A stretch of DNA of 46,145 nt. Origin: a virus. Position numbers and translations under genes: made by a program. Positions 10,633 through 34,671 of this stretch are shown one piece after another; position 1 is the first letter of the stretch; every line of letters begins with the position of its first letter. The notes under the pieces were generated by a model. It had not been told where the DNA came from. It did not search any database and saw only the letters and a list, made by a program, of their open reading frames with translations. The stretch is taken from IMG/VR virus record IMGVR_UViG_3300037087_000773; one strand, written 5' to 3'.

Positions 10633-10634
10633 AT

Positions 10635-10883
10635 ATGGATACATTCGGTAATTTAATAGATAAACTTACAATTGTCAATCTGAAAATCTGGAATTATGAG
10701 GATATTAAACGAGATTCCAAGGATGATAAAGAAATAGCTGATGCTACCAAAAAAACTAATATACTGAATCAACAAAGAAATGACTTAATTCAGGAAATAG
10801 ATGAAATGTTGATAAATGCTTCTAAAGGAAAAATCAACTTCAAAAATTATAAACAAGGAGAAACAAAAAAATATGGCAAGTAA
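10635..10883 (+). CDS. hypothetical small protein (82 aa)
   Basis: ORF starting 2 nt after the stop of the previous gene. Charged and K-rich. Confidence 0.35.
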   Translation: MDTFGNLIDKLTIVNLKIWNYEDIKRDSKDDKEIADATKKTNILNQQRNDLIQEIDEMLINASKGKINFKNYKQGETKKYGK

Positions 10884-11664
10884 TCTGGTTATTGGAAACA
10901 CTTCTCAATTATCATATTTCTTCCCAGAAGATTATGTCAAGATATCTTCCAGAAATATTGATATGTATTACTTGAAAAATAATTATTGGGATTCAGTTTA
11001 TATAACATTTGCTGAACAAAGAATTCATTCAAATGATGTAAATTATATAACCCCCAATTATTTTTTAACAACAGACATCATAGAAAATCTCACTCTTAAT
11101 TCAAATAAAATTGTAGTTTATACCACTTGTGAACTCTGGAATAATTATGTTGGAAAAGTATCTATTGATGATCCGATTAATTATACCTATTTTAATGATT
11201 ATTGTGATTCAAAATCAATGTTAATGAAACTTATTCAATTCAATAGAAACTCTGGAAAATGGGAAAATGTAATTATGATCCACCCATTCAATTTCAATTC
11301 GACATACAGAAAACAAGAATTTTTATTTGGAAAAATATTTGATTCCATAATCAATGAAAAGAAAATCGAAATCGGTGATACTTATTTTTATAAAGATATA
11401 GTTCACACTAAATATATGGTTGAAAGATCTATTAAATCCACCTCTGATGAAATGGTTGGAAGTGGTAGATTAACCTTTCTCAACGATTTCATCAGGGATT
11501 TATATTATCATTTCGATATGGACTATGATTTCTGGGTAAAAGAAAATTTAGATAAATCATCCCCAGATAGAATGTTTTATCCTAAACAAAAAAACATATA
11601 TACATATACTATGTTATTGAATGATACGAGGAAAGATATATGGGATATTAAAAGAAAAAAATAA
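10873..11664 (+). CDS. hypothetical protein (263 aa), possibly a nucleotide-sugar-modifying enzyme
   Basis: The ATG at 10873 (MASNLVIGNTSQL...) is preferred over the in-frame upstream ATG at 10816, which overlaps the previous ORF. The N-terminus resembles a Rossmann-like start, but no SDR catalytic motif could be confirmed. Confidence 0.5.
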   Translation: MASNLVIGNTSQLSYFFPEDYVKISSRNIDMYYLKNNYWDSVYITFAEQRIHSNDVNYITPNYFLTTDIIENLTLNSNKIVVYTTCELWNNYVGKVSIDDPINYTYFNDYCDSKSMLMKLIQFNRNSGKWENVIMIHPFNFNSTYRKQEFLFGKIFDSIINEKKIEIGDTYFYKDIVHTKYMVERSIKSTSDEMVGSGRLTFLNDFIRDLYYHFDMDYDFWVKENLDKSSPDRMFYPKQKNIYTYTMLLNDTRKDIWDIKRKK

Positions 11665-11665
11665 T

Positions 11666-12028
11666 TTACTTCTCTTTCTCTTCTTCTGGATCACATTCAC
11701 ACTCACAATCACATTCATCCTTTTTTATTCCAAATAATTCATTAATAGTAGTATCTTTTGTTAAAGATTCTAATGCTTCCATTACTTGTGATCTGTTTTG
11801 AATTGGAAGTTCTTCTAATACTTCATAAACACCGTCATTATTAAACTCTTTTTTTTGAATCCATAGAATTTTTTCATTAAACATATCCAAATAAAAAGTG
11901 TTTTTCACAGTCGATTTGAAAAGTATTTTATAACAAGTTTTTGTGGATTCCAAACATTCGATTTCACGAATTATTGTTTTTTTATCATTCTCATGAATCA
12001 ACACCAAATAATTTCTTCCTTTTTCCAT
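11666..12028 (-). CDS. hypothetical protein with acidic Cys/Glu-rich tail (120 aa)
   Basis: C-terminus DECDCECECDPEEEKEK. The start is 2 nt downstream of the stop of the GT gene. Confidence 0.4.
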   Translation of the reverse strand: MEKGRNYLVLIHENDKKTIIREIECLESTKTCYKILFKSTVKNTFYLDMFNEKILWIQKKEFNNDGVYEVLEELPIQNRSQVMEALESLTKDTTINELFGIKKDECDCECECDPEEEKEK

Positions 12029-12032
12029 ATAT

Positions 12033-13004
12033 TTATTTATTTTTTAACCTTTTAAAATCAGGTAATATGTATTGATATATTTCATTTAATTTTAAAGCTA
12101 TATTTGACCAATCAAAATCAATACCTGTTTGACGAGCCTTTACTCTATAATCCTCATAATTATTTATTACATCCTTCACTCCCTCTAAAACTGATTGATT
12201 ATCTAACTTTACTTCTCTCAGACCATTTATTTTCTTTCGATTGGAATAAGTACCAACTACTGGTAATCCACATGATAGAGCCTCTGCAATTGTTAAATTC
12301 GGTAAAGCTGTTTCCACCTCGGAAACATTCATGAATATGGTATGTTCATTTAATGTTTTTATAAGTTCATCCTCAGTTAAATTATCCAAAATGGTTAATT
12401 TGGAATAATCCTTATATTGTGGATAAGCATCGAAAAACCAATAATTTTTTTCAGGGCCAGCTATCGTTATCGGAAGATCCAAATCAATAGCTGCCTGAAT
12501 GGCAAATCGGAAACCCTTTCTATCCACTGGTTGATCTTTTGCTGTACATATAAGTTTGTGAGATTCGACTTTATTATTATGAAATGGTTTATATTTATCT
12601 GAATCCACTCCATGAGAAACATAAAACATTTTATTTCTAAATTCTTTATAAAATTCCATCATCAAATCACAATGTTGAATGACTAAAACAGCATTCTCCA
12701 TCGCCTTTTTATTACTCTCATAAATCCAACTTCCAACACCATCAATATAAGGTGTGGTATCATCGGGGGCAAAGATATAAGGTATCCCTCTTTCGTGTAA
12801 ATGATGTCCCTGATTGTGAACACAAGTATAAACGATATCAAACCTATCGAAATTATAATAGTCGGATAGGACATATTCTACGGTATGGCCCATTTTTTCA
12901 AATTGTATTCTGTAATTATGTAAATATTTTTCGATAGCACCCCAACCAACAGGTGGGATGGGAAGTAATCCCGGAGATAAAAGAGCTATATTTAATTTTT
13001 CCAT
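12033..13004 (-). CDS. glycosyltransferase, GT-B fold (GT1/GT4-like)
   Basis: N-terminus IALLSPGLLPIPPVGWGAIEKYLHNY...GHTV is the typical GT4 N-terminal signature. The C-terminal IAEALSCGLPVVGT matches the EAMAxGxPVVAT motif. Confidence 0.65.
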   Translation of the reverse strand: MEKLNIALLSPGLLPIPPVGWGAIEKYLHNYRIQFEKMGHTVEYVLSDYYNFDRFDIVYTCVHNQGHHLHERGIPYIFAPDDTTPYIDGVGSWIYESNKKAMENAVLVIQHCDLMMEFYKEFRNKMFYVSHGVDSDKYKPFHNNKVESHKLICTAKDQPVDRKGFRFAIQAAIDLDLPITIAGPEKNYWFFDAYPQYKDYSKLTILDNLTEDELIKTLNEHTIFMNVSEVETALPNLTIAEALSCGLPVVGTYSNRKKINGLREVKLDNQSVLEGVKDVINNYEDYRVKARQTGIDFDWSNIALKLNEIYQYILPDFKRLKNK

Positions 13005-13036
13005 TTAATTAATTAATTTATATTTTATATAATAAG

Positions 13037-13058
13037 AATTAATTGGGGCCAATTAATT
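13037..13058. promoter_or_regulatory. palindromic hairpin AATTAATTG-GGGC-CAATTAATT (9-bp stem, 4-nt loop)
   Basis: Read directly from the sequence at 13037-13058. It lies between two co-directional minus-strand genes, 3 nt after the stop of 13061..13501 and 33 nt before the GT start. It contains GGGGCCAAT, a one-mismatch reverse complement of the ATTGACCCC motif described below. Confidence 0.45.
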
Positions 13059-13060
13059 TA

Positions 13061-13501
13061 TTATTTTTGTTCTGGTGATGTTAAATTCCATGATTTGTCA
13101 CCACCATTTTCAACGCTGTCATTTTCAACAGGCTCCCACACTGTTTTACCAAATTTGAGTACCTGTTTTACTTCATTCTTTCGTTCCATTTTATCAAATC
13201 TACTATCCACTTTAGAAAGAACTCCCTTTATTTCTTCTTCAAGAGAAGAATAAAGATTATTTACTGCAGTCGATATACCATCATCAATTTTTGCATCAAT
13301 CCTTTTGATTTGATCGTCATATCTTGTAAGAATTTCACCTACATTGGATGTCAAAGAGTTATTCACAGCTTCGACCATCTCTGCATTTTCTTTTGACAAT
13401 TTCTTCGTTTTCCAAGAAGTTACCGATAACCATACTAAAAGTATGACTACACCAACCCCTAACAATGTGAATAAAACTGTCAATAAAATTGTTTGTATCA
13501 T
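13061..13501 (-). CDS. membrane-anchored coiled-coil protein (146 aa)
   Basis: N-terminal transmembrane segment ILLTVLFTLLGVGVVILLVWLSV, followed by a charged helical region. Confidence 0.45.
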   Translation of the reverse strand: MIQTILLTVLFTLLGVGVVILLVWLSVTSWKTKKLSKENAEMVEAVNNSLTSNVGEILTRYDDQIKRIDAKIDDGISTAVNNLYSSLEEEIKGVLSKVDSRFDKMERKNEVKQVLKFGKTVWEPVENDSVENGGDKSWNLTSPEQK

Positions 13502-13521
13502 AATTGTTTTTTATTGTTTTT

Positions 13522-13533
13522 TGAATTGACCCC
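13522..13533 (+). promoter_or_regulatory. GC-rich 12-mer TGAATTGACCCC in a divergent intergenic region
   Basis: This copy sits in the 144-nt divergent region between 13061..13501(-) and the 1615-aa gene (+). A second copy, TGGATTGACCCC, lies at 24987-24998 in the other divergent region heading glycan cluster II. Confidence 0.4.
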
Positions 13534-13645
13534 AATCAACTCATTTTTGAACTGAATAACTTTTCTATATAAAGTATCAAAAACAATTTGTTTTAACAAA
13601 CTTTAATGATTTTTATACCATATAATGAAAAAATCAAATTAATCA

Positions 13646-16600
13646 ATGAATCAGATTGATGATATTATCAAAAGTAGTAATTCCCAAGCCGGTCAAGATG
13701 TATTTGCTTATTATATATGTGACACGAACAATGGATATTTTATTGATATTGGATCTGGAACTCCAATCGGTATGAATAACACATATTTATTAGAAAAAAA
13801 CGGATGGAATGGATTAAACTTTGATTTTTGGGATAATAGAAAATCATATGAGGAATCCAGACGAACACCTTACATTATGGAAGATGTAAATAAAATAAAT
13901 ATGTCGAATTTTTTAGAAAAAATGAATTCTCCAAAAGTCGTAGATTATTTATCAATAGACATAGATGAAAATACTGATTATTTTCTATCTAATAATTTTC
14001 CTACTGATTACGAATTCAAAGTCATCACATTTGAACATAATTTATATCTCGATGGAGATTCATTGAAAAACAAATCAAAAAATTTCTTCATAGAACACGG
14101 ATATACTTTATTATGTGAAAATGTTGCACTCAGTTTCACATCCAAATATGATGTTTTTGAAGATTGGTACATCAATGAAAAATATATTGATATTAAGAAA
14201 TTCGAATTTTTGAAATCTTGTGGTTTACACTTTACTGAAATAATAAACAAAATAAAAGAACATGAATTGAATAATATAAAAATTTGTCTTTATACCATGT
14301 GTATAAATGAAGAAGAATTCCTGCCATTTTTCTTGGATTATTACACAAATTATGTCGGGGTGGATAAAATAGTTATTTATGATGGTGGTTCAACAGATAA
14401 ATCACATAGTATAATAAATAGTTATCCGAATACGGAATTAATACTGGAGCATGATGATAAAACTGATTCCTTCAGAGATCTTAGGATATGGAATGAAGAA
14501 TGGAAAAAATGTCGTAATGATTATGATTGGATGATTGTATGTACACCAGATGAATTCTTATATCATCCAGATTTAAGGAATAAATTAATCGAATATAAAA
14601 AAAATGGAATTACCATCCCAAATGTAGAGGGATTTGATATGATATCTTTGAATCATCCTAATTATGATAAAGGAAATTATTTACCAAACCAAATAAAAAG
14701 AGGAATAAAAGATTCAACATTCTTAAACAAAAATATCATATTCAATCCAAAAGAGATTGATATTAATTATCATGTCGGTTGTCATGGTTGTAATCCCACT
14801 GGAAATATCAAATTCAGTGAAGAATATGATTTCAAATTACTTCATTATAAATGGATATCTTATGATTTTCTAATGAGAGATTCTAAAAGAAAATATGAAA
14901 GATTATCTGATAAAATGTTAGAAACAGGGGCTGGTGGACATTATAAAGTCTTTATTCAAAAAACATATGAAGAATATGTTCAAAGATATAATCAAACGAT
15001 ACAGGTTCTTGAAGAAGAAAAAGATATAAATCTTTTTTGGCATTGTTATCTCATTAATAATTGGGTGAAAATATTCAAAAATCAATTAAATAAAATTGTA
15101 GATAGTGGATTATATGAAAAACTTAATACCATTCATTTACATTATTTTGGAAAACCAGAAGAAGTTAAAATTTTATCAGAACTAATTTCAAGATATGATA
15201 AAATAAAGTCTTATGAAATAGAAGATAATTTTTATGAATATCCGACAATAAAACATATTCATAAATTTTCATCTGTAAACAATTCGTATGTTGGTTATAT
15301 TCATTTAAAAGGTGTCTGGAGTTCCATGAATAAAGAAAAAAATATTGAGGCTATAAATAGTTGGAGAAAATGTTTAGAATATTTCAACATAGAAAAATGG
15401 GATAACTGTATATCTAAGATAAATGAGGGTTATGAAGTGGTAGGGGCTTTATATAATTACAATGAAAAAGATCCCTTATTTAGTGGAAATTTTTGGTGGA
15501 CTACAACAGATTATATCAAAAAATTAAAATATCCTCAATATGATCCTTCAAAAAATCCATATCCAATGGATGATGGTACTTGGTGTAGGGTAGAATGTGA
15601 GAAATGGATAAATACAATACCGAATAAATTTTACAATTTTTATATACCAAAAGATTATGGTTTTTATCAAGTACCGATAGACGAAAATGATTATAAGGAT
15701 AAAAAGACAATAAATCATATTTATGAAAATATAGAGGGATGGTTTGATTTCGAAAAAATTTATTCTGATATGGTTAATAGATTTCCAAATGGATCTCATT
15801 TTGTTGAAATAGGTTCTTGGTTAGGAAAATCCACTTCTTATATGGGAGCTGAAATATCTAATTCGGGAAAAAAGATAAAATTCGATTCTATTGACACATG
15901 GGAGGGATCAAAAGGAAGTTGGGATGAACAAGTCCAGAATGACACAATAAATAATTTGAATATATCTTTATATCAAAAATTCTTAGAAAATGTAAGACCA
16001 GTTAAAGATTATATTAATCCAATCCAAGGATGGTCATATGATGTTGTTAATAGATATGAGGATAAATCCCTTGATTTTGTTTTTATCGATGGTGCTCATG
16101 ATTACGAATCTGTTAAAAAAGATATAAATGATTGGTATCCGAAAGTAAAAGATAATGGTGTTATAGCGGGTCATGATTATAATATTCACGATTGGCCGGG
16201 GGTCGTTCAAGCGGTAAATGAATTTTTTAATGAGGGAAATGTCTCAAGTGTCAAAAAAGATACTTGGTCTTGGATTGTAGATAAAAAAGAATTCGAAGAT
16301 TCGAAACAAAAAAATCATAAAATATCAATCATTATTCCGACATATAATCGTCCTGATATTTTAACAGAATGTATAAATTCAGTTTTAAAACAAAATTATG
16401 AAAATTTAGAAATACTTATTTGCCATGATGGTTTTTTTTCTGAATTTTATTGTTATGATTATAAGACCACAGACAAGAGAATATTCTATTACAATACAGA
16501 CAATCAATACAACAATCTGGGGGCGGCACAAAGAAATATGATGATATCAAAAGTAACTGGTGATTATATTCTTTTTTTAGATGATGATAATATTCTTTAT

Positions 16601-18493
16601 GATGGATATTTACAAAAGATGATAGAACAAATTGACAAAAATACAGGGATGGTTGTTTGTCGTATTCATTTTAATGATAAAGAATGGCTGAATTTAATAT
16701 TACCCCCTGATGATAGATTGATACCAGCCAAAATAGATCATCTTTCTATCCTCTTTAAAAGTGATATAGCAAAGAAATTTACATGGGATAATGATTGGGG
16801 TCAAGATCATCGTTTTATAAATAATTGTGAAAGATTATGTAATGAAAAAGGATTTGAAATAAAATATATTCCAAATATTCTTGCCAATCATCGTTATTTA
16901 AAAAGAGAGAATAGAATTGACGAATTATTAAAAGAAAAAAGATTAGAACAATATGATGATGATAATGGTGTAAATAGATTATTTGGATTAAAAAACATGA
17001 TAGATGAAAATCTAAACAAAGAATCTATAATATGTGAAGTAGGATCGTTTGATGGTAAATCCTCTGAATTGTTTGCACTATTAACTAAAAAGGTTTATTG
17101 TGTTGATCCTTGGGTTTTATATTCTCAGATAGATGATGAATCTATGATTAAATCCGAAGAAAAATTTGATAAATTATTGAATAAGTATAACAATATAATT
17201 AAAATAAAAAATTACAGTATAGAAGCCTCGAAAACATTTGAAAATGAATTTTTGGATTGTGTTTATATTGATGGTAATCATGATTATGAACCAGTTAAAC
17301 AAGATATCTTACATTGGATTCCAAAAATAAAAAGGGGAGGGTTCATAAGTGGACACGATTATCATTTTGAGGGAGTAAGAAAATCTCTAAATGAATTATT
17401 TCAAAATATTCCGATAAAAGTTTATTCCGACCAAAGTTGGGTTGTAAAAATAAATGATTATAGAAAGGGTGAAAAACCACATAAAGAAGTAGTCATTATG
17501 ACATCTCACCCAAACTATAAAATGTCAGAAGATATAACTAAACTGGCCATTAATTCTTTTGATAATAAAGATGTGATATTATCTGTACATTGTCCAGTAT
17601 CCATAGAATTACAAAATAAAGTAAAATATTTATTATATGATAAAAATAATCCCTTAATTCGTCATGATTATTATAATCAAAGTTGGTTTGAAACGACTGA
17701 ATATTATTCATTGATTAAACTTCATTATAATGATAATGATTTTCAACACGCTTTGGCTGTTTATATTAATTATTACAATGGTATAATGTATGCTAAATCA
17801 TTGGGTTATACGACAGCTATTTGTACCAATTTTGATATAGTTTTCAGTAAAGAAGATCTGAAAATAGTTGACGAAAAAATTAGTGAAATGTATCAATCTG
17901 GAAAAAAATCATTCTTTATGACATCAAATCCGAGTGAGGGAATACATTATAAAACAATTTTCTTTATAACAGATGTGGATTTCTTTTTGAATAATTTTAA
18001 ATATGTAACCAATGAGAAAGATTATAACAAACTAACCAGAGAAGTAGGATCTGAAACAAATTGTTTAGAGAATTTTTTCTATGAAACTTTAAAAAATTCA
18101 GATAAATTATTACTTCAACAAATAGAAGAAAAGGAATTATTTTCAAAAAGTAAGGTGAATATGTTCTCAAATATAGAATATTTCACTATTCTCCCACTGA
18201 GAGATGATAATGAACATTTTGTTATTTGGTTTAGTTCAGCAAATTCGATTGATAATAGGTCTATTGGAATCCATGTCCTAAAAGGAAGGGAAGCTATTTT
18301 TAGCCACAGTGGAAATATCAGTAAGGATTATAAATTCTATAAGGAAATAAAATTCGAGAAGGACTGTAATTATGAAGTAATATGTAATGTATATTACGAT
18401 GATATGGTAAATCAGAAAACAATTACCGTCAATAACGATGTTTTCTATAACAAATTAAAAGATTACGGAGATTTCTGGAAGAAATCAGTATAA
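13646..18493 (+). CDS. 1615-aa multidomain glycan-tailoring enzyme (FkbM-MT / GT-A / unknown / class-I MT / GT2 / class-I MT / unknown)
   Basis: Around aa 10-190, FkbM-like (AGQDVFAYYI...GYFIDIGSGTPIGMNNTYLLEKNGWNGLNFD). Around aa 205-330, GT-A domain (ICLYTMCINEEEFLPFFLDYYTNYVGVDKIVIYDGGSTD). Around aa 700-870, class-I SAM methyltransferase of Methyltransf_24 type (HFVEIGSWLGKST...DFVFIDGAHDYESVKKDINDWYPKVKDNGVIAGHDY). Around aa 890-1100, GT2 (ISIIIPTYNRPDILTECINSVLKQNYENLEIL...FLDDDN). Around aa 1130-1250, a second Methyltransf_24 domain (ICEVGSFDGKS...CVYIDGNHDYEPVKQDILHWIPKIKRGGFISGHDY). The aa 440-690 region and the C-terminal roughly 330 aa are unassigned. Confidence 0.8.
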   Translation: MNQIDDIIKSSNSQAGQDVFAYYICDTNNGYFIDIGSGTPIGMNNTYLLEKNGWNGLNFDFWDNRKSYEESRRTPYIMEDVNKINMSNFLEKMNSPKVVDYLSIDIDENTDYFLSNNFPTDYEFKVITFEHNLYLDGDSLKNKSKNFFIEHGYTLLCENVALSFTSKYDVFEDWYINEKYIDIKKFEFLKSCGLHFTEIINKIKEHELNNIKICLYTMCINEEEFLPFFLDYYTNYVGVDKIVIYDGGSTDKSHSIINSYPNTELILEHDDKTDSFRDLRIWNEEWKKCRNDYDWMIVCTPDEFLYHPDLRNKLIEYKKNGITIPNVEGFDMISLNHPNYDKGNYLPNQIKRGIKDSTFLNKNIIFNPKEIDINYHVGCHGCNPTGNIKFSEEYDFKLLHYKWISYDFLMRDSKRKYERLSDKMLETGAGGHYKVFIQKTYEEYVQRYNQTIQVLEEEKDINLFWHCYLINNWVKIFKNQLNKIVDSGLYEKLNTIHLHYFGKPEEVKILSELISRYDKIKSYEIEDNFYEYPTIKHIHKFSSVNNSYVGYIHLKGVWSSMNKEKNIEAINSWRKCLEYFNIEKWDNCISKINEGYEVVGALYNYNEKDPLFSGNFWWTTTDYIKKLKYPQYDPSKNPYPMDDGTWCRVECEKWINTIPNKFYNFYIPKDYGFYQVPIDENDYKDKKTINHIYENIEGWFDFEKIYSDMVNRFPNGSHFVEIGSWLGKSTSYMGAEISNSGKKIKFDSIDTWEGSKGSWDEQVQNDTINNLNISLYQKFLENVRPVKDYINPIQGWSYDVVNRYEDKSLDFVFIDGAHDYESVKKDINDWYPKVKDNGVIAGHDYNIHDWPGVVQAVNEFFNEGNVSSVKKDTWSWIVDKKEFEDSKQKNHKISIIIPTYNRPDILTECINSVLKQNYENLEILICHDGFFSEFYCYDYKTTDKRIFYYNTDNQYNNLGAAQRNMMISKVTGDYILFLDDDNILYDGYLQKMIEQIDKNTGMVVCRIHFNDKEWLNLILPPDDRLIPAKIDHLSILFKSDIAKKFTWDNDWGQDHRFINNCERLCNEKGFEIKYIPNILANHRYLKRENRIDELLKEKRLEQYDDDNGVNRLFGLKNMIDENLNKESIICEVGSFDGKSSELFALLTKKVYCVDPWVLYSQIDDESMIKSEEKFDKLLNKYNNIIKIKNYSIEASKTFENEFLDCVYIDGNHDYEPVKQDILHWIPKIKRGGFISGHDYHFEGVRKSLNELFQNIPIKVYSDQSWVVKINDYRKGEKPHKEVVIMTSHPNYKMSEDITKLAINSFDNKDVILSVHCPVSIELQNKVKYLLYDKNNPLIRHDYYNQSWFETTEYYSLIKLHYNDNDFQHALAVYINYYNGIMYAKSLGYTTAICTNFDIVFSKEDLKIVDEKISEMYQSGKKSFFMTSNPSEGIHYKTIFFITDVDFFLNNFKYVTNEKDYNKLTREVGSETNCLENFFYETLKNSDKLLLQQIEEKELFSKSKVNMFSNIEYFTILPLRDDNEHFVIWFSSANSIDNRSIGIHVLKGREAIFSHSGNISKDYKFYKEIKFEKDCNYEVICNVYYDDMVNQKTITVNNDVFYNKLKDYGDFWKKSV

Positions 18494-19653: not shown

Positions 19654-19830
19654 ATGATAACACAATTCGAAAAATATATTCTTGAGGATAATCAATTTTT
19701 GAATTCCATAAAAATTGTTTATGAAGATGATTTAAAATCAAATTCAATAATAACAATAAGGGCATTTCATGAGAAAGAAGAAGTAGGTTCAGTAATATTA
19801 GAAGAATGTATGGGGTTAACCAACTGCTAA
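19654..19830 (+). pseudogene. N-terminal fragment of a GNAT acetyltransferase (58 aa) truncated at the left end of the TnpB element
   Basis: MITQFEKYILEDNQFLNSIKIVYEDDLKSNSIITIRAFHEKEEVGSVILEE resembles GNAT beta2-beta3. It ends at TAA 19828-19830, immediately before the left inverted repeat. Confidence 0.4.
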
Positions 19831-21230
19831 TAAAAATCTAACATTATCTACAAGAAATTACCAAAACTTACAAGTAAAAATAAATATGGAAAAAATCGGT
19901 ATTTTTAATTAATATATAGTATTTATAAGAAAGGGAATAAAACACCACCTTTTTTGTAATCTATGTTGAAAGCAATTAAAATACGATTATATCCAACGAA
20001 AACTCAAACAAGTTACATTAACCGCTTGTGTGGTTCATATCGTAAAGTATATAATATGTGTCTGGAAAAGAAGATAAACGCTTATAACAATGATAAAACC
20101 AGTTTAGGACTAACTGAACTTGGTCATTATTTTCATAACGAACTGACCAAGACAGAAGCGTTTTCATACCTGAATGAACATAACACCAAAGTGCTGAAAC
20201 AATCTGTCATAAATTTGTTAGATAGTTACAAACGATTCTTTGTTAACAACACAGGTTTCCCAAAATATAAATCCAAACACGATAATCAATCAGCCAGATT
20301 TCCGATTGAAGGTATATCAAAGTATAATATTTATTCAGATAACCGTGTAACGCTTGGTAAGTCATTGAAGAAAGTTAAATTTGAATGCTCAGACAGAGAT
20401 AAAACATATCTAACCAATTATAAAGATAAAATAAAGTCAGCAACACTATCCAGAACTAAATCTGATAAATATTTTCTTTCTATTTTGATTGAAAATATTA
20501 TAGAACCGATGGTAAATCCGACCAATGATATCATAGGTGTTGATGTTGGCATCAAGGATTTTATGGTTTGTTCAGATGGTCAGGTATTTGATAACTTGAA
20601 ATTAAAACGAAATAATGAAAAGACATTGGTTAAACTTCAACGCCAGTTATCGAAAAAAGTTGTTGGGAGTCATAATAGATATAAAGCCAAGGTAAAACTT
20701 GCAAGAAAATATGAAAAATTAAATAATAAGAAAATAAATTACATACATAACATTACAACTCAATTAGTTCGTGAGAACCAAACGATTGTTATTGAAGATT
20801 TGAATGTTAAAGGTATGATGAAAAACCATTGTTTGGCAAAGTCAATTCAAGACCTTTCAATTAATGAAACATTTAGACAATTAAAGTATAAATGTGAATG
20901 GTATGGAAGAGATTTGGTAGTGATAGATAGATGGTTTCCAAGTAGTAAACTATGTTCAAACTGTGGATATAAGTATAAAAACTTATCATTAAAAGAAAGA
21001 GATTGGGTGTGCCCTGATTGTGGTACACACCATTCAAGGGATTTCAACGCAGCGACAAACATAGTTAACGAAGGAAAGAGATTGATAGGTAGCCGTTCTA
21101 CCGAATTTACGCTTGCGGAGTATCCGCTTATGGATGACAAGGGAGTAATCCCCCTAAAAAGTAATGATACGATGAAACAAGAAGAATCAAATTTAACAAG
21201 GTTGTAGATTTTGTTAGATTTATTTTAACG
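19826..21230 (+). mobile_element. IS605/IS607-type (TnpB/Fanzor-like) element inserted into a GNAT gene
   Basis: Imperfect terminal inverted repeat: AAATCTAACA at 19834-19843 is reverse-complemented by TGTTAGATTT at 21212-21221. About 20 of 25 flanking positions match as an extended inverted repeat. The only ORF inside is tnpB. The GNAT reading frame stops just before the left repeat and resumes right after 21228. Confidence 0.55.
19963..21207 (+). CDS. tnpB: TnpB / OrfB RNA-guided-endonuclease-like transposon protein (414 aa)
   Basis: N-terminus IKIRLYPTKTQTSYINRLCGSYRKVYN (OrfB_IS605 N-terminal). RuvC-I IGVDVGIKDF. RuvC-II TIVIEDLNVKGM. Zinc finger CSNCGYKY...CPDCG. RuvC-III HSRDFNAATNI. 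All catalytic residues are present. Confidence 0.85.
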   Translation: MLKAIKIRLYPTKTQTSYINRLCGSYRKVYNMCLEKKINAYNNDKTSLGLTELGHYFHNELTKTEAFSYLNEHNTKVLKQSVINLLDSYKRFFVNNTGFPKYKSKHDNQSARFPIEGISKYNIYSDNRVTLGKSLKKVKFECSDRDKTYLTNYKDKIKSATLSRTKSDKYFLSILIENIIEPMVNPTNDIIGVDVGIKDFMVCSDGQVFDNLKLKRNNEKTLVKLQRQLSKKVVGSHNRYKAKVKLARKYEKLNNKKINYIHNITTQLVRENQTIVIEDLNVKGMMKNHCLAKSIQDLSINETFRQLKYKCEWYGRDLVVIDRWFPSSKLCSNCGYKYKNLSLKERDWVCPDCGTHHSRDFNAATNIVNEGKRLIGSRSTEFTLAEYPLMDDKGVIPLKSNDTMKQEESNLTRL

Positions 21231-21534
21231 GTCTTATTGGTATTTTGAAGATGATTTTTCAGAAGATGAATACAATGAATTATTTCCAGATGACCAATTC
21301 ATGAAAATACAACACTTAGAAATAAAACACAAGAAAAGTGGATTGGCTCGAAAATTAATGTTATTAGCCATTGAGAAATGCAAAGAATTAGGATTCAATA
21401 AAATTTATTTAAATGCCTCACCAATTGGACAAGAGGGATTGGAAATAACTGATTTGGTTTGGTTTTATAAAGGTTTCGGTTTTAAAGAGATACTAAATCA
21501 GGGACATAATGTTCAAATGTTATTGAATGTCTGA
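21229..21534 (+). pseudogene. C-terminal fragment of a GNAT acetyltransferase (frame open from 21229; first ATG at 21301)
   Basis: ...HLEIKHKKSGLARKLMLLAIEKCKELGFNKIYLNASP...FYKGFGFKE contains GNAT motif A (R/Q-x-x-G-x-A, acetyl-CoA binding) and the C-terminal beta strands. The frame is open for 24 codons upstream of the first ATG with no Met, which is consistent with a split gene. Confidence 0.55.
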
Positions 21535-22769: not shown

Positions 22770-23309
22770 TTATCCCTTTCTAAGTTGATTAAATTCTAAT
22801 GTCAATGGAGTTTTTCTACCAAATATTTTTACTGATACAGTAATTCTTCTTTTTTCCTCATTAATTTCATCAACAGTAGCATTGAAATTAGCGAAAGGAC
22901 CATCTGAAATAGTAACATTTTCCCCAATAACAAAAGGTATTTTAACTGAATCTGGACTTTCATTCATTTCATCAAGTTTCCCTAATATTCTCGCCACTTC
23001 AACATCTCTTAAAGGTTCTGGTGTACCACCCTTTGGTCCAAGAAAATGAAGAGCCCCAGTAATACTTTTTAAAATTCCTGTGAATTCACCACACATTTCG
23101 GCCTCTAAGAGGATATATCCCGGAAAATAGTTAACTTCACGAGTAACTTTCTTTCCATTTTTCACATAAAATTCCTTATGAGTAGGTATCACAATTTGAG
23201 ATACCTTATCTTTAAGCCCGTATTTTTCTATTTCACTTTCAAATTGTTTCTTAACTCTTTTTTCCCATCCACTATTTGAACGGATTACATACCATCTCAT
23301 ATTTGACAT
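22770..23309 (-). CDS. nusG: transcription termination/antitermination factor NusG (bacterial type, 179 aa)
   Basis: NGN domain: RWYVIRSNSGWEKRVKKQFESEIEKYGLKDKVSQIVIPTHKEF...VNYFPGYILLEA. The E. coli equivalent is RWYVVQAFSGFEGRV...VMVPTEEV...RKFFPGYVLV. KOW motif: FVIGENVTISDGPFANFNATVDEINEEKRRITVSVKIFGRKTPLTLEFNQL (E. coli [51 protein letters not shown]). It is not in the canonical secE-nusG-rplK context. Confidence 0.85.
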   Translation of the reverse strand: MSNMRWYVIRSNSGWEKRVKKQFESEIEKYGLKDKVSQIVIPTHKEFYVKNGKKVTREVNYFPGYILLEAEMCGEFTGILKSITGALHFLGPKGGTPEPLRDVEVARILGKLDEMNESPDSVKIPFVIGENVTISDGPFANFNATVDEINEEKRRITVSVKIFGRKTPLTLEFNQLRKG

Positions 23310-25031: not shown

Positions 25032-26399
25032 ATGATTAAATTAATTGTATTTGATTTAGATGGGGTTTTAGTATCTACAAAAGAACTTCATTACTTTTCC
25101 CTGAATAGGTCTTTATGTGATATTGATTCTAAATATGAAATTGGTTTAAATGAACACTATGAAATGTATGATGGACTACCGACAATGAGGAAACTAAAAA
25201 TGTTAACTCAATATAAAGATTTACCATCGGAATTATATGACCAGATAAATAGGAATAAACAAAAATACACATTTGATCTTATCAGAGAAACCATCAAAAA
25301 AGATGAAAGACTTATAGAGTTATTGAAAAAGCTAAAGAGTGAAAATTTCAAAATTTATGTCGCATCAAATTCAATTCGTGAAACAACTAAACTTTTATTA
25401 TATTACACTGGTTTATTAGAATATGTTGACTTCTATATATCAAATGAAGATGTAAAAAATCCCAAACCAAATTCAGAAATGTACTTACATTGTATGATTG
25501 ATGCTGGGGTTAATCCAGATGAAACATTAATTGTCGAAGATTCTCCAAGAGGTATCGAATCGGCCAGAAACGCTAAAAGTCATATATTGATAGTCCAGAA
25601 TCCAGAAGATTTGACATATGAAAAAATACACCATTCCATGATACATGATAATAAACCAGTAAAATTAAAACTATCTAACTTTAATATTTTAATTCCAATG
25701 GCTGGGGCTGGAACAAGATTTCAAAAAGCCGGGTTCACTTTTCCTAAACCATTAATTGAAGTCAATGGAAAACCAATGATACAAGTTGTAATTGACAATT
25801 TGGGATTTGAAGCCAATTATATTTATGTGGTTCGTAAAGAACATTATGAAAAATTTAATCTCAAGAATTTCTTGAACTTAATAACTCCAAATTGTAAAAT
25901 AATTCAAGTGGATGAATTAACTGAAGGAGCGGCTTGTACAACCTTGTTAGCTAAAGAATATATAAATAACGACAATCCATTAATTATAGCCAATTCCGAT
26001 CAGTTTTTAGAATGGAATCCGATGGATTTTTATTATAAAATGATTGAAACTAAATCAGATGGTGGAATTGTAACATTTCGTTCAACTCACCCAAAATGGT
26101 CATTTGCGAAAATAAATGAATTCGGAAATGTTGTTGAAGTGGCCGAAAAAAACCCGATTAGTGATATTGCCACCGTTGGTGTTTATTATTATAAAAAAGG
26201 TTCTGAGTATGTCAAATATGCCGAACAAATGATAAGTAAAAACATAAGAGTAAACAATGAATTCTATGTCTGCCCAATATACAATGAATATATTGGTGAT
26301 GGTAAAAAAATTAGAACACATGATATAGATAAAATGTGGGGTATAGGTACACCCGAAGATCTCGAATACTTCATAAACAATTATAATCAAAAAAAATAA
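25032..26399 (+). CDS. bifunctional HAD-superfamily hydrolase/phosphomutase-like (N-terminal) plus sugar-phosphate nucleotidyltransferase (C-terminal)
   Basis: N-terminus IKLIVFDLDGVLVST (DxDG motif I)...LIVEDSPRGIESARNA (HAD-IA). C-terminus ILIPMAGAGTRFQKAGFTFPKPLIEVNGKPMIQ (NTP_transferase G-x-G-T-R signature)...IANSDQF. Confidence 0.75.
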   Translation: MIKLIVFDLDGVLVSTKELHYFSLNRSLCDIDSKYEIGLNEHYEMYDGLPTMRKLKMLTQYKDLPSELYDQINRNKQKYTFDLIRETIKKDERLIELLKKLKSENFKIYVASNSIRETTKLLLYYTGLLEYVDFYISNEDVKNPKPNSEMYLHCMIDAGVNPDETLIVEDSPRGIESARNAKSHILIVQNPEDLTYEKIHHSMIHDNKPVKLKLSNFNILIPMAGAGTRFQKAGFTFPKPLIEVNGKPMIQVVIDNLGFEANYIYVVRKEHYEKFNLKNFLNLITPNCKIIQVDELTEGAACTTLLAKEYINNDNPLIIANSDQFLEWNPMDFYYKMIETKSDGGIVTFRSTHPKWSFAKINEFGNVVEVAEKNPISDIATVGVYYYKKGSEYVKYAEQMISKNIRVNNEFYVCPIYNEYIGDGKKIRTHDIDKMWGIGTPEDLEYFINNYNQKK

Positions 26400-26406
26400 A
26401 AAACAC

Positions 26407-26646
26407 ATGAAAACATTAAAAAATGAATTGAATTTAAAAGGAATTAAAAATTGGAGTTTAATATTTGGAGGATCTGATCCAGATATAAAACCAACAATCT
26501 TATTAAGATTTAATGATGATAGAATTGAATCTTTACTTCTTAATAAAGAAGAAATAAAAAAAATAAAAAATTCAAAAGAAGGAGAATTCCAAAAGGAAGT
26601 AGAAAAAATCATATTGAATAAATTGCAAAAATCCGAATTAGAATAA
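26407..26646 (+). CDS. hypothetical small protein (79 aa)
   Basis: ORF within the operon, starting 7 nt after the upstream stop. K/E-rich. Confidence 0.35.
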   Translation: MKTLKNELNLKGIKNWSLIFGGSDPDIKPTILLRFNDDRIESLLLNKEEIKKIKNSKEGEFQKEVEKIILNKLQKSELE

Positions 26647-27314
26647 TGAAAGTAGCTCTCCTTTTAACTGGTTATTTAAGAAAATATAAAGAATGTTTCA
26701 ATAGTTTATATCAAAATTTATTATCCAAATATGATATAGATATTTATTGTTCGACTTGGAATAAACAAGAAAATGGAATCATAATTGACGAAAAATATTT
26801 CGATATTTATAATCCAAAAAAAATCATCATAATTGATGTTGATGAATATAATAAAATCAAACCAATATTCAAAAAATTACAAAGAGAAAACGATGTTTTT
26901 GATATTGATCAAAGAGCTAAATGGCATGGTGAATATTGGGTTAATAGATTAATGGATCAATGGTATATAGTGAAGAAATCTTTTGAATCCATAGAGAATT
27001 CAGAACAATATGATAAATTTTTCAGACTTCGTTATGATGTTTTATTGAATAATTTTATTTTATTAGATAACGACCATCTAACAATTCCACGAGATGAATC
27101 TTTTGTGTGGGATTATAGTGATCACATGGCTTATGGAAATTATGATGCTATGTATAAATATTGTCATTTTTATGACCATATTTTCAAACTTTATGAAAAA
27201 TATAATATAGATGTATCACACGCGGTTAATATGCTGAAATTCTACATGGGTGAATATGAACCAAAAGTTGAAACAACAGTAGATGTTAATCTCGTGTATA
27301 AAATAAACAAATAA
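26646..27314 (+). CDS. hypothetical protein (222 aa), weakly paralogous to 30102..30896
   Basis: VALLLTGYLR...IYCSTWNKQENG versus the 30102 gene's VIFRGSVLYAG...VIVSTWKGQEEH. The similarity is low. Confidence 0.45.
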   Translation: MKVALLLTGYLRKYKECFNSLYQNLLSKYDIDIYCSTWNKQENGIIIDEKYFDIYNPKKIIIIDVDEYNKIKPIFKKLQRENDVFDIDQRAKWHGEYWVNRLMDQWYIVKKSFESIENSEQYDKFFRLRYDVLLNNFILLDNDHLTIPRDESFVWDYSDHMAYGNYDAMYKYCHFYDHIFKLYEKYNIDVSHAVNMLKFYMGEYEPKVETTVDVNLVYKINK

Positions 27315-27316
27315 CG

Positions 27317-28444
27317 ATGAACATATTAATACCAATGGCCGGTTTAAGTACCAGATTTCTTAACGAGGGTATAAAAACACCTAAACCATTAATTAAAGTA
27401 AATGGAAAGACACTCATTGAACATTCTGTTAGTTCATTAAATATTCATGGACATTATATATTTATTACTCGTAAATATGAAAATCCACAAGATAATATCG
27501 ATTTATCAGAAGAACTAAAAAGATTAGTTCCTAATTGTTTGGAAATTTGTTTAGACAAACCAACCAGAGGAGCCACCGAAACCTGTTTAATGGCCGAACA
27601 ATGGATTAATACTGATGAAGAACTCATAATAACAAATTGTGATCAAATAACAAATTGGAAATCTGGTGATTTTTTAAAAAATATCGGTCAATATTCAGAT
27701 TTTCCAGATGATTATCCTTTTCCAGATGGTGGTTGTGTAGTAACATATACTTCTGATAATCCAAAAAACAGTTTTGCTATTGTTGAAAATGGGCAAGTAA
27801 CACAAATTGTTGAAAAAAAGGTCGTATCTAATATAGCCCTTATCGGTGTTCATTATTGGAAAAAAGGAAAATATTTTGTCGAATCGGCAAAACAACTCTT
27901 AGAAAGTTTTGAAAAAACTGGAGTACCCGAATGTTATATTTCCGAAACTTATAATTTTCTTATTAAAAAGGGACTCAGAATTACAAATTATCATGTCAAA
28001 GAAAATCAATATATTTCCCTTGGTACACCCTATGATTTAATGATTTATGAATCAAAAATAAAGGAATATTTCACTGATAAACCAAAAACCATTTTCATTG
28101 ATTTAGATGGAACAATAATTCATCATCTTCATAGATTTAGTGATGTCGTGAAAGAAGAACCAACTTTGTTAGAGGGGGTTATTGAAAAAATAAATGAATG
28201 GGATTCACATGGTCATAGAATCATTTTTGTAACCGCAAGAAAAGAATCAGCAAGAGAGATGACTGAAAATCAATTGAGAAAACTCGGTTTATGTTGGGAT
28301 CAATTAATAATGGGTGTGTCTAATGGAATCAGAGTGATGATTAATGATAAATTAGACGAAGATAATCCAGATCGTACAATATCAATTAATTTGAAAACCA
28401 ATAGTGGATTTAAAAATATAAAGTGGGGTGATTACGGATTATGA
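27317..28444 (+). CDS. bifunctional sugar-phosphate nucleotidyltransferase (N-terminal) plus HAD-like phosphatase (C-terminal)
   Basis: N-terminus MNILIPMAGLSTRFLNEGIKTPKPLIKVNGKTLIEH (NTP_transferase). C-terminus TIFIDLDGTIIHH...IIFVTARKESAREMTENQLRKLG...MINDKLDED (HAD motifs I-IV). The domain order is the reverse of the 25032 gene. Confidence 0.75.
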   Translation: MNILIPMAGLSTRFLNEGIKTPKPLIKVNGKTLIEHSVSSLNIHGHYIFITRKYENPQDNIDLSEELKRLVPNCLEICLDKPTRGATETCLMAEQWINTDEELIITNCDQITNWKSGDFLKNIGQYSDFPDDYPFPDGGCVVTYTSDNPKNSFAIVENGQVTQIVEKKVVSNIALIGVHYWKKGKYFVESAKQLLESFEKTGVPECYISETYNFLIKKGLRITNYHVKENQYISLGTPYDLMIYESKIKEYFTDKPKTIFIDLDGTIIHHLHRFSDVVKEEPTLLEGVIEKINEWDSHGHRIIFVTARKESAREMTENQLRKLGLCWDQLIMGVSNGIRVMINDKLDEDNPDRTISINLKTNSGFKNIKWGDYGL

Positions 28445-29403
28445 AATTATACAGAATCGAAGATATGAAAGGTGGTTGGTTCGTTGGTAATTTTGAACCA
28501 ACCATTTTTAAAACAAAAGAATGTGAAGTATCTTATAAAGTCCACAAGAAAGGTGAAATTTGGGATATTCATTATCATGATGTTTGTACAGAGATAAATC
28601 TACTCATAAGAGGTGAGATGATAATGCAAAATAAAACTTTAAAGCCGGGAGATATATTTGTTCTCGAACCATTTGAAATAGCAGATCCGACATTCTTAGA
28701 AGATTGTGAAATTATATGTGTTAAAGTTCCATCAATAAATGACAAAATATCTGTGATTAAAAAGGAAATCACACAGGTAAAAGAATCCACGCAAAGAACA
28801 GAAATGGACTTCAGAGAATTGATAAAACCAAAGGGATGCACTTTTATTCAAATTGGTTCTAATGATGGAATTAAAAATGAAAATTGCGGTTTTAGAGAAG
28901 AAGTTTTAGAACATGAACATAATGTTATAATGATAGAACCAATTCCTTCTTTTTTTAATCAATTAAAATTAAATTATAAAAATAGTAAATCTCATATACA
29001 ATTTGAAAATTGTGCAATAACTGAAAGTAATCAAGAAAAAAGCATTTATCTCAATGATGAAGAAAGTTCTTTTTGTGTGATTAAAGATAGAGACCCGAAT
29101 AATTTTTTAAAAGTAAAATGTAAAACAATTCACGATATTATAAAAGAATATAACATAACACATATAGATGGTTTATTTATTGATGCCGAAGGTTATGAAT
29201 ATTTGATATTAAAAAATTTATTTGAAAAAAAGAACATCCCGAATATAAATTTCATAAGATACGAATTTGTACTTAGTGAAAATATTAATGGATTAGATGA
29301 ACTATTAGTAAACAATGGATTTAGAATATTCAAGGATTCAACTGAAGGTGGAGATAAAATCGCTGTTAATAATAAATTAATACAAAAATTAAAAATAATA
29401 TAA
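28441..29403 (+). CDS. cupin-domain (N-terminal) plus FkbM-family methyltransferase (C-terminal) fusion
   Basis: Cupin: GGWFVGNFEP...HKKGEIWDIHYHDVCTEINLLIRGEMIM...KPGDIFVLEP. FkbM: CTFIQIGSNDGIKNE...IMIEPIPSFF...IDGLFIDAEGYEYLILKNL. It overlaps the upstream gene by ATGA. Confidence 0.65.
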   Translation: MKLYRIEDMKGGWFVGNFEPTIFKTKECEVSYKVHKKGEIWDIHYHDVCTEINLLIRGEMIMQNKTLKPGDIFVLEPFEIADPTFLEDCEIICVKVPSINDKISVIKKEITQVKESTQRTEMDFRELIKPKGCTFIQIGSNDGIKNENCGFREEVLEHEHNVIMIEPIPSFFNQLKLNYKNSKSHIQFENCAITESNQEKSIYLNDEESSFCVIKDRDPNNFLKVKCKTIHDIIKEYNITHIDGLFIDAEGYEYLILKNLFEKKNIPNINFIRYEFVLSENINGLDELLVNNGFRIFKDSTEGGDKIAVNNKLIQKLKII

Positions 29404-29409
29404 AAAAAT

Positions 29410-30102
29410 ATGTTTGGACAATTATCAACCCATGTGGGGAAAAGAGTTAATTTCGTTATAAATAAGATGGACTTATCCAATATAAAGGAAATATTAGACA
29501 TCGGATCATGGCATTTAAATCAAAGTCATGAATTTCATGATATTTTTCCTGATGCGAATGTAAATGCATTTGAACCAGTACCAGATTCATATCAACTTTG
29601 TTTAAATAACAATCGTTGTCCAGATAAAATATCTGTTCACAATTTGGCATTAACCGATTTTAATGGTGAAACTAATTTTTATCCAGTAGATCCTGTTAAA
29701 AGTTCAGATCCAAATGTGGGAGCTTCATCACTACTGAAATTCATGGATGGTTTAAATGGTAGTTTCTTTAACCAGAACTGGATTCAAAATGAGATTATTG
29801 TTAAATGTTCAACTTTGGATAATTGGTGTCAAACTTATGGAAAAAAAATAGATATAATTTGGATAGATGTTCAAGGAGCCGAACTTAAAGTTTTCAAAGG
29901 GGCAGACAATACATTGAATGATGTGAAAATAATATTTACTGAAGTTGGACTTAAACCTTATTATGTAGGACATAGTTTAAAAAATGAAATTGATGAATAT
30001 CTAATAAGTAAGGGATTTGTAGAATTAACCGAATCTTTTGAATTGAACGGGTTTGATTACGAAGCAAATACTATATATTGTAAAAAGGAATTTTTATTGT
30101 AA
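29410..30102 (+). CDS. FkbM-family methyltransferase (230 aa)
   Basis: ILDIGSWHLNQSHEF...VNAFEPVPDSY...IDIIWIDVQGAELKVFKGA. Confidence 0.7.
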   Translation: MFGQLSTHVGKRVNFVINKMDLSNIKEILDIGSWHLNQSHEFHDIFPDANVNAFEPVPDSYQLCLNNNRCPDKISVHNLALTDFNGETNFYPVDPVKSSDPNVGASSLLKFMDGLNGSFFNQNWIQNEIIVKCSTLDNWCQTYGKKIDIIWIDVQGAELKVFKGADNTLNDVKIIFTEVGLKPYYVGHSLKNEIDEYLISKGFVELTESFELNGFDYEANTIYCKKEFLL

Positions 30103-31822: not shown

Positions 31823-31825
31823 AAT

Positions 31826-32035
31826 ATGGAATGTACAATAAAAAAATTGACAGATAATAAAATACCGGGTGTAAATTACCTGATAAGATATCGTGATGGT
31901 AAATATGATAGAACTTTATGGGTTGATACCTTTGATATTGACGAAATTAAAAAAAATTTCTCTAATCTTCCTGATGAAGTTATGTCAGGTATTATAAACT
32001 TAGACAGAAAAATAAAATTGGACGATATATTATGA
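31826..32035 (+). CDS. hypothetical small protein (69 aa)
   Basis: ORF within the operon, with ATGA overlap with the downstream gene. Confidence 0.3.
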   Translation: MECTIKKLTDNKIPGVNYLIRYRDGKYDRTLWVDTFDIDEIKKNFSNLPDEVMSGIINLDRKIKLDDIL

Positions 32036-32484: not shown

Positions 32485-32544
32485 TATTTTTTTATTTCGG
32501 ATATTTATCGTACCTTTGTACTGTCAATCTAAAATCATATCATT

Positions 32545-34653: not shown

Positions 34654-34671
34654 TTTTAAAAATTTAAAGCC

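Follow-up and report, generated by a model that had tools for sequence, protein, structure and literature searches.

A TnpB element of probable IS607 type interrupts an acetyltransferase gene in a huge phage-like genome

What kind of DNA has split an acetyltransferase gene in two, how did it enter, and might it still move? These questions are raised by a stretch of 46,145 nucleotides (nt; hereafter the window) from the IMG/VR virus record IMGVR_UViG_3300037087_000773, in which two pieces of a GNAT acetyltransferase gene stand on either side of DNA that encodes a TnpB protein. An initial annotation made from the letters alone (the sequence-only reading) had proposed that a TnpB element bounded by terminal inverted repeats (TIRs), of a "Fanzor/IS607-like" kind and perhaps "recent and still active," interrupts the gene; every sequence feature that it listed was found where it had been placed. 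Drawing on intact homologues, copies of the element at other sites, and known TnpB systems, we conclude that the element is very probably a non-autonomous transposon of the IS607 family that carries tnpB only and sits in the GNAT gene of a huge phage-like genome.

A seamless insertion splits the GNAT gene

Joining positions 19654-19815 to 21232-21534 gives a protein of 154 amino acids (aa) that aligns end to end with eight uninterrupted homologues (144-244 aa, 36-72% identity; alignment A1). The alignment is free of gaps at the junction (...EECMG/SYWYFEDDF versus ...EENID/AYWYFEDDF), and at the DNA level the nearest homologue (L043) is colinear across the empty site. All eight homologues are single open reading frames (ORFs), none has independent starts, and GNAT Pfam domains are precomputed for seven of them. 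The reconstructed window protein keeps 33 of the 33 columns that are invariant among the homologues; the GNAT fragments therefore show no decay. YWYFEDD, just after the junction, is an invariant GNAT motif in the same alignment. Judged by these comparisons, the split arose by insertion, and a naturally two-gene arrangement is excluded because 8/8 homologues are single ORFs. The proposal that a TnpB element interrupts a GNAT gene is thus borne out.

As first described, the 3′ piece carries motif A and is open in frame from 21229, following the TAA at 21226-21228, with its first ATG at 21301. Taken alone, the N-terminal piece had no Pfam match and the C-terminal piece had only sub-threshold matches to PF00583 and PF13673. 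The GNAT identity derives instead from the full-length homologues, which match the reconstructed protein over the whole fold, including motif A, rather than the separate pieces. No relatives of this GNAT were found in IMG/VR. An exact 23-mer for the restored junction occurred 0 times in metagenome_contigs, as did a control 23-mer for the occupied junction; this genome is not in that collection, and the first zero carries no weight.

The bounds of the insertion were set by comparison with seven sister copies, which are IMG/VR elements at other genomic sites whose TnpB proteins are 72-90% identical to that of the window. Similarity to them begins at GGGTTAACC/GGGTAC and ends at ...AACGGT; in window coordinates, nucleotide similarity starts at 19811-19813 (GGGTTAACC...) and ends at 21232 (...TTTTAACGGT). 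This comparison places the left crossover core, GG, at 19814-19815 and the right GG at 21230-21231. With GG taken as the shared core, the insertion measures 1416 bp (19816-21231). Excising these 1416 nt gives back an open frame (...GAA TGT ATG GGG TCT TAT TGG..., encoding ...EECMG-SYWYFEDDF), and the restored, element-free junction reads GAATGTATGGGGTCTTATTGGTA; there is no target-site duplication, and the insertion is seamless.

The left flank of the window element reads GGG (19813-19815). Across independent insertions, at a genomic GC content of 28%, a further G precedes the left GG (7/7) and a purine stands ahead of that GGG (7/7). The base next to the right GG is T without exception, both in the window and among the 41 distinct GG-type copies listed. 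The GG rule also fits copies L001, L002, L003, and L009 as well as a mini element in L001, and it reopens frames across the junction at the sister insertions of L002 and L003 and at the mini element.

These bounds shift the element ends as first placed (19831-21228) by 15-17 nt on the left and by 3-4 nt on the right. The 58-aa ORF at 19654-19830 is real, and the only sizeable ORF of the 1.4-kb element is an intact tnpB (the next longest is a 97-aa antisense ORF). The final codons of the supposed "N-terminal piece," however, are not GNAT sequence: 19816-19830 is element DNA, supplying the codons LTNC and the TAA that closes the ORF. The features of the locus are as follows.

19654..19815, + strand: GNAT 5′ fragment, codons 1-54 (...VILEECMG); ORF with its junction colinear with eight intact homologues
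19813-19815, + strand: putative GGG target-adjacent motif (TAM), the last three G of the GNAT 5′ fragment
19816..19962, + strand: left end (LE), non-coding, 147 nt; homology with sister copies
19963..21207, + strand: tnpB, 414 aa, intact; Pfam, PHROG, PDB, and NCBIfam matches
21085..21232, + strand: scaffold of the omegaRNA (or right-end RNA, reRNA), ~148 nt; alignments A3 and A4, RNAalifold, and covariance model
21202..21232, + strand: inverted-repeat arm of the right end (RE), within which lie the stop codon of tnpB (TAG) and the right GG; comparison with sister copies
21233..21252, + strand: predicted 20-nt guide-encoding flank (CTTATTGGTATTTTGAAGAT), directly 3′ of the scaffold and right-flanking nucleotide
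21232..21534, + strand: GNAT 3′ fragment, codons 55-154 and stop (SYWYFEDDF...KSGLARKLM...); colinear with homologues

The element encodes an intact TnpB

The tnpB product matches the Pfam families HTH_OrfB_IS605, OrfB_IS605, and Cas12f1-like_TNB, PHROG 506 (1.5e-113), and the NCBIfam model guided_TnpB (303.9 bits; cut-off, 100). Its PDB matches by phmmer include ISDra2 TnpB (2e-59, 370 residues aligned) and the IS607 enzyme ISFba1 TnpB (8iaz; 3e-44). Catalytic D194, E278, and D360 and the zinc-finger cysteines C331/C334/C350/C353 line up with ISDra2 TnpB, in agreement with the earlier observation that the RuvC and zinc-finger residues are all intact. The protein has the HTH/WED-REC region, the RuvC D-E-D triad, and the CxxC...CxxC zinc finger of a TnpB, with the RuvC motif GVDVGIKD (D-V-G) and a glutamate at the canonical IEDLN. 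K79 aligns with ISDra2 Q80, a position that has been equated with the G-reading K83 of ISFba1 (PMC11061315). The last ~40 codons of tnpB overlap the omegaRNA scaffold.

The tnpB stop (21205-21207) is the only TAG among 25 long ORFs checked, the others ending in TAA (19) or TGA (5). TAG suppression has been reported in some megaphages; if the host phage suppresses TAG, TnpB would gain six residues and end at the TAA at 21226-21228.

Inverted repeats lie within both ends

The 10-bp perfect inverted repeat that had been described at the element ends (AAATCTAACA at 19834-19843 and TGTTAGATTT at 21212-21221) is nested in a 31-nt inverted repeat that is 81% complementary (19823-19853 / 21202-21232). 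With up to three mismatches (<=3), the 20-mer TTGTAGATTTTGTTAGATTT has two sites only in 46 kb, both at element ends (expected, 0.06; two sites were reached in 0/100 shuffles). The repeat is asymmetric, its right arm extending to the very end of the element and its left arm beginning 9 nt inside the GG. The left arm holds two ATCTA motifs 10 bp apart (19836-40 and 19846-50), and the right arm holds two TAGAT motifs at the same spacing (21205-09 and 21215-19). That inverted repeats flank the element and recur is confirmed at every sister copy having both ends, and the arms change in step within each copy (a perfect 17-mer in L002, 18/21 in L009, and 17/18 in the mini element; range, 13-21 nt). 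Our analysis suggests that these paired TAGAT motifs, present in each end in inverted orientation, are likely to be binding sites for the transposase TnpA.

Within the left end, a candidate promoter for tnpB is an AT-rich block (19900-19929) that is conserved between copies; a scan of the element for sigma-70 promoters and terminators found sites no more frequent than in shuffles. No LE hairpin was found, the DNA minimum free energy of the first 87 nt being -0.3 kcal/mol, weaker than that of 186/200 shuffles.

IS607-family IStrons exist and split genes (bioRxiv 10.1101/2023.11.20.567912), and an IStron or other self-splicing element would leave the GNAT transcript as RNA, so that the gene would still work. 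The length of the insertion is a multiple of 3, and a transcript running through the element could fold with 31 nt of LE paired to RE, as such a model would have it. We nevertheless find it scarcely credible and rejected it: Rfam gave no group I or group II intron match, whether the gathering threshold or E<=10 was applied, just 147 nt of non-coding left end are available, and sister copies have insertions of 1418 and 1450 nt, which are not multiples of 3. Moreover, the bases before GGG at the left junction vary (G, A, or C) and do not fit the U of a 5′ splice site, and stop codons follow immediately after the junction.

A conserved omegaRNA spans the tnpB 3′ end

The segment at 21085-21232 is conserved among copies far above ordinary coding sequence, and viral contigs contain at least 120 stretches of DNA that match its 19-nt motif CCGAAWTTACGCTTGNGGA. 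RNAalifold on 39 distinct sequences gave 22 pairs, 12 of them compensatory. Paired cells amounted to 95.8% in these 39 sequences (34-61% with partners slid) and to 95.1% in 84 sequences (slid controls overall, 31-61%), with covariation scores of 0.432 (slid controls, <=0.151) and 0.369 (slid controls, <=0.111), respectively. The covariance model R1 recovers 84 copies, including non-seed ones such as the Bacteroidales metagenome-assembled genome (MAG) contig L168 and mini elements without tnpB; its score of 145 bits on the window omegaRNA is that of a sequence belonging to the R1 seed. A conserved, structured RNA thus lies where the sequence-only reading proposed to look for an omega/reRNA, at the tnpB 3′ end. 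As in other tnpB-omegaRNA pairs, structure and covariation place the scaffold over the tnpB 3′ end and the right end and close it with a pseudoknot. Its parts are as follows.

21088-21102, + strand: nexus hairpin; predicted fold
21093-21096 with 21228-21231, + strand: pseudoknot that pairs the first hairpin's loop with the final four bases of the scaffold; covariation
21112-21183, + strand: RAGATH-18-like core; Rfam model match
~21189-21222, + strand: terminal hairpin; predicted fold
21232, + strand: fixed right-flanking T, predicted to belong to the scaffold; alignment of copies

At the pseudoknot pair in columns 10-240 of alignment A4 (window 21094 and 21230), C-G occurs 63 times, A-U 13 times, and U-A once. 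This signal is independent of R1, because the pseudoknot is absent from the model. The crossover dinucleotide varies across the family (GG, TG, AG, GA, and GT), and column 240 is its first base; the RNA fold and the recombination core therefore covary. Read from the alignment, the pseudoknot ties the DNA recombination core to the fold of the omegaRNA.

The core at 21112-21183 was matched by the Rfam model RAGATH-18 (RF03064), an RNA that accompanies IS607 TnpBs (PMC11061315), with E=0.003 when 231 nt were searched and 0.027 when 2 kb were. The outer helices of RAGATH-18 and its GGA...GAUGAA internal loop coincide with omegaRNA helices 2 and 3. The core is RAGATH-18-like and not a curated member.

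By a published rule, the guide directly follows the scaffold and the right-flanking nucleotide (PMC10711439); its length of 20 nt was inferred from PMC11061315. The predicted guide (CTTATTGGTATTTTGAAGAT) is unique in the window and falls within the codons for the invariant YWYFEDD of GNAT. The closest intact allele, that of L043, matches the guide target but lacks the GGG.

Assignment to the IS607 family

The rules described for IS607 through ISXfa1 comprise a GG crossover, a GGG TAM, and a fixed right-flanking nucleotide that forms part of the scaffold (PMC10711439). The window element shows the core dinucleotide and the fixed T, whose scaffold role is predicted, and comparative evidence points to a putative G-rich TAM; the G-rich TAMs AGGAG and GAGGG have been reported for TnpBs of the RAGATH-18 type (PMC11061315). 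The serine transposase of the family, TnpA(Ser), was found in relatives. In L008, a 63%-identical TnpB comes directly after a 204-aa MerR-HTH and resolvase protein that scores 178.6 bits against the NCBIfam model "IS607 family transposase" (transpos_IS607; cut-off, 110); the left end of L008 was not located by eye, and its right end lies outside the stored locus. TnpA(Ser) homologues also lie 1.4-2 kb upstream of the same omegaRNA, ahead of tnpB, in L134, L143, and L103, and L077 and L119 carry further homologues (presence only, not adjacency). Given the type of omegaRNA, the TnpA(Ser) in relatives, and, at the junctions, GG cores with GGG on the left and an invariant base on the right, we consider the assignment to IS607 very probable.

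Several observations weigh against this assignment or against the element being mobile. Where an IS607 element would hold its own TnpA, none was found in the element or in the 46-kb window; the window copy is therefore non-autonomous rather than a complete IS607, and its mobility depends on an unseen partner. The NCBIfam model IS200_TnpB outscores IS607_TnpB (353 versus 183 bits, both below their cut-offs), and within PDB the protein is nearer to ISDra2 than to ISFba1. The RAGATH-18 match, although it covers the full model, reaches 26.9 bits against a gathering threshold of 44.9, and 0/15 sister loci scanned reached that threshold. For an empty site in this lineage, no intact GNAT allele above 71% identity was found in a 5.8-billion-cluster protein collection. 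Six contigs encode this exact TnpB, in one genomic context only; two of them, read as DNA and coming from other samples, are identical to the window over 21 kb. Finally, IS607 elements have been described as being without inverted repeats (bioRxiv 10.1101/2023.11.20.567912), whereas the family of the window element has subterminal repeats of 13-31 nt; the earlier view that TIRs are typical of IS607 was mistaken. Because an IS607 IStron is reported to have short inverted motifs of 6-7 bp, comparable to the TAGAT pairs of the window, within functional ends that measure 40-60 bp (bioRxiv 10.1101/2023.11.20.567912), this last departure is a difference of degree.

The protein scores suit a model in which the element is of IS200/IS605 type, moved as single-stranded DNA by a Y1 (HUH) TnpA and inserted 3′ of GGG(T) with no serine recombinase. 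The overlap of the omegaRNA with the tnpB 3′ end likewise resembles ISDra2, an IS200/IS605 element, and the left-flank motif alone does not separate the two models, because GGT stands at both junctions. Other evidence does separate them. The left end has no hairpin, close relatives and other omegaRNA carriers adjoin an IS607-type TnpA(Ser), and a fixed right-flanking base and a RAGATH-18-like core are reported as IS607 traits. A Y1 transposase probe matched chiefly loci whose TnpB is 28-34% identical; two matches fell outside this group, one in L047 at a distance of 4.4 kb from a copy of the omegaRNA and a weak, partial one in L083. The probe found nothing in the window and nothing next to close relatives. 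With neither an LE hairpin nor a Y1 TnpA near close relatives, we rejected the IS200/IS605 mechanism as very unlikely.

Proposed mechanism and mobility

Following the biology of the IS607 family, a trans-acting TnpA(Ser) would have inserted the element from a circular, double-stranded form, through a crossover that joins the element GG to the target GG in ATGG-GG-TCTTAT and leaves no target duplication. The predicted circle junction joins ...TTTTAACGG to TTAACCAAC.... An omegaRNA transcribed through the right end would have as its 3′ ~20 nt a copy of the GNAT flank (CTTATTGGTATTTTGAAGAT). The TnpB-omegaRNA complex would then cut element-free GNAT alleles in which T and the target come after a GGG TAM, and repair of the break from an occupied copy would retain or spread the element ("cut-and-copy" homing). 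GNAT would be inactive while the element is present, and precise excision by TnpA would restore the gene.

The suggestion that the element is recent and still active is plausible from its sequence, because neither the GNAT pieces nor TnpB show decay. The same kind of element could also be a stranded relic, fixed in a genome without TnpA, whose TnpB-omegaRNA would do no more than guard the occupied site or cleave related phages. The missing TnpA, the absence of a closer intact allele, and the single context of the exact TnpB (two contigs read as identical over 21 kb and four more places listed as similar) would all be expected of a relic. Against a relic, no decay is seen in TnpB, in the omegaRNA pairs, at either end, or in either GNAT fragment; in addition, sister copies of 88% nt identity occupy other sites in other genomes, and many viral contigs hold 2-3 or more copies, alongside autonomous copies with TnpA. 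The TnpA search covered the 46-kb window of a 736-kb genome. We regard a relic as unlikely, though a serious contender.

Under the IS607 assignment, a broader and more speculative picture, which we put forward tentatively and would not expect to hold in full, is that an IS607/TnpB lineage has specialised on huge phages of Bacteroidales. During co-infection, RNA-guided homing would let it multiply inside a megaphage genome and pass from one such genome to another, and it would have spawned mini elements consisting of guide RNA only, some of them in tRNA genes to which they supply a replacement 3′ half. If this were true, TnpB would be a phage-to-phage gene-drive or competition device and not merely a stray bacterial insertion sequence.

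The host genome

The largest phage genomes reported are ~735 kb. A neighbouring gene lies on a contig of about that size, 736,551 bp (ENA ERZ27254251 k141_203136), to which the window belongs. Samples that contain this genome are ENA ERZ27254251 and ERZ28656406 and JGI 3300037088. Against GenBank phages, the window had no megablast match and no near-identity, and its protein matches were remote only. A full-length NusG-like gene (NGN and KOW; 22770-23309, - strand) matches the phage "transcription antiterminator" PHROG (5e-32), and S1-domain, DnaJ, and PolB-like genes lie nearby. The closest GenBank phage TnpBs are those of Lak megaphages (48% aa), and Bacteroidales MAG contigs reach 56%. The host is probably a huge phage; the assignment is probable rather than proven because no capsid or terminase hallmark gene was seen.

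In favour of a Fanzor2 element in a giant virus of eukaryotes are the very large, AT-rich genome (28% GC) and the glycosylation and major-vault-protein-like genes of the window, and Fanzor2s ride IS607-like elements in giant viruses (PMC3627910, PMC10711439). The RuvC-I D-V-G and the IEDLN glutamate, however, are the signature of TnpB by published criteria (PMC10711439). The context, with its phage-type NusG, S1-domain protein, and tightly packed, overlapping genes, is phage-like, and the nearest relatives are in Lak megaphages, other large viral contigs, and Bacteroidales MAG contigs. On these signatures and this phage-like and bacterial context we ruled out Fanzor, an extremely unlikely reading; of the label "Fanzor/IS607-like," only the IS607 part stands.

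Elsewhere in the window, 1-2424 (- strand) encodes an 807-aa protein in which Pfam finds the repeat (6e-26) and shoulder (2e-11) domains of major vault protein; such a gene is unusual in a phage-like genome. Clusters of glycan and sugar-nucleotide genes occupy 7439-18493 and 25032-42275 and include a GDP-mannose dehydratase, FkbM- and TylF-type methyltransferases, glycosyltransferases of families GT2, GT10, and GT25, and WavE; one product is a 1615-aa multi-domain methyltransferase-glycosyltransferase. These clusters suggest that the virus builds its own glycans.

Comparison with known systems

Among the closest known systems is ISXfa1, an IS607 element of Xylella fastidiosa (PMC10711439), which like the window element has GG at both ends, a GGG TAM (putative in the window), and a fixed right-flanking scaffold nucleotide, together with a ~150-nt reRNA that runs past the right end and a pseudoknot of the 5′ hairpin loop with the scaffold 3′ end. 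ISXfa1 has its own TnpA(Ser) and resides in a bacterial chromosome, whereas the window copy is without TnpA, bears subterminal repeats, resides in a huge phage-like genome, and has activity that is predicted. ISFba1 (PMC11061315; PDB 8iaz) shares a homologous TnpB, the RAGATH-18 helices and internal loop, and a G-rich TAM. It differs in that the window core scores 26.9 bits against the 44.9-bit threshold and diverges over the central ~40 nt, in that the scaffold is ~148 nt in the window versus 187 nt in ISFba1, and in that the reRNA of ISFba1 reportedly stays clear of the coding sequence altogether, while the tnpB of the window reads through the whole scaffold.

The best-characterised relative of the protein is ISDra2 TnpB (IS200/IS605; PDB 8exa/8h1j), with the same domain order, triad, and zinc finger and an omegaRNA that likewise overlaps the tnpB 3′ end and has a pseudoknot. 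ISDra2 moves as single-stranded DNA through a Y1 transposase and has hairpin ends and a TTGAT TAM; the window element, in contrast, has no LE hairpin, a G-rich flank, and relatives with a serine recombinase. CboIStron of Clostridium botulinum (bioRxiv 10.1101/2023.11.20.567912) resembles the window element in its IS607 ends of ~40-60 bp, short inverted motifs, and intragenic insertion, and its TnpB-omegaRNA homes to the empty donor joint. Its 5′ group I intron splices the element from the mRNA; none is detectable in the window, where GNAT is simply broken. Fanzor2 (PMC3627910, PMC10711439) has in common an IS607-type vehicle, a large viral genome, and a TnpB-like nuclease, but the Fanzor signatures (DPG and the alternative glutamate) are absent from the window TnpB, whose relatives are prokaryotic or from phages. 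The Lak megaphages of Prevotella (GenBank MK250015-MK250029) carry an unannotated TnpB (48% aa identity over 98%) at 2-5 places per genome and, like the window host, are huge and AT-rich; the likeness drawn here is by TnpB protein.

Taken together, these comparisons indicate that the element is a clear but ordinary member of a known family, IS607, with no new mechanism and with two mild peculiarities, (i) the subterminal inverted repeats and (ii) a tnpB that overlaps the whole guide scaffold. Its interest lies in a natural IS607-type example that is resolved to the base, from its ends and crossover cores to the likely TAM, the guide, and the fold of the guide RNA, and whose host has one of the largest phage-like genomes known. 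Large viral contigs are rich in this family, frequently with several copies to a genome, and the family could inform how RNA-guided transposons spread among phages; it also offers compact TnpB/omegaRNA pairs with putative G-rich TAMs.

Further copies

Many large viral contigs (100-550 kb) carry 2-4 omegaRNA copies, among them 3300014039_000307, 3300008522_000006, and 3300050014_000823 of IMG/VR, and elements of this family appear to multiply within huge phage genomes. The mini element of L001 (818-1185) is 368 bp long and consists of LE, omegaRNA scaffold (79.7 bits with R1), and RE, without tnpB. It splits an ORF in frame (598-837 and 1164-1481; ...EPDEG/CLSFINNV...), and the ORF upstream of it ends in an element-derived GLTNC tail, as the window GNAT piece does.

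Further omegaRNA copies without tnpB lie in phage tRNA arrays (L140:385-650 and L140:3162-3470; also in L147 and L149), 17 nt after a complete tRNA-Lys; another case comes after a tRNA-Phe. The right end is directly followed by a second fragment of tRNA 3′ sequence (TCTTGGGTTCGAGTCC...). Apparently the insertion took place at a GG before the T-arm, with the element supplying a replacement 3′ half of the tRNA; if so, the guide would target the T-arm of the uninterrupted tRNA gene.

Two more split genes were seen at sister copies. Under the GG rule, L002 (3840-3870 with 5300-5340) reads ...NLEDG/VLTVTIPK..., and L003 (3840-3870 with 5345-5400) reads ...IEAIKG/ELSDILWYI..., which resemble motifs of small heat-shock-protein and MazG type, respectively.

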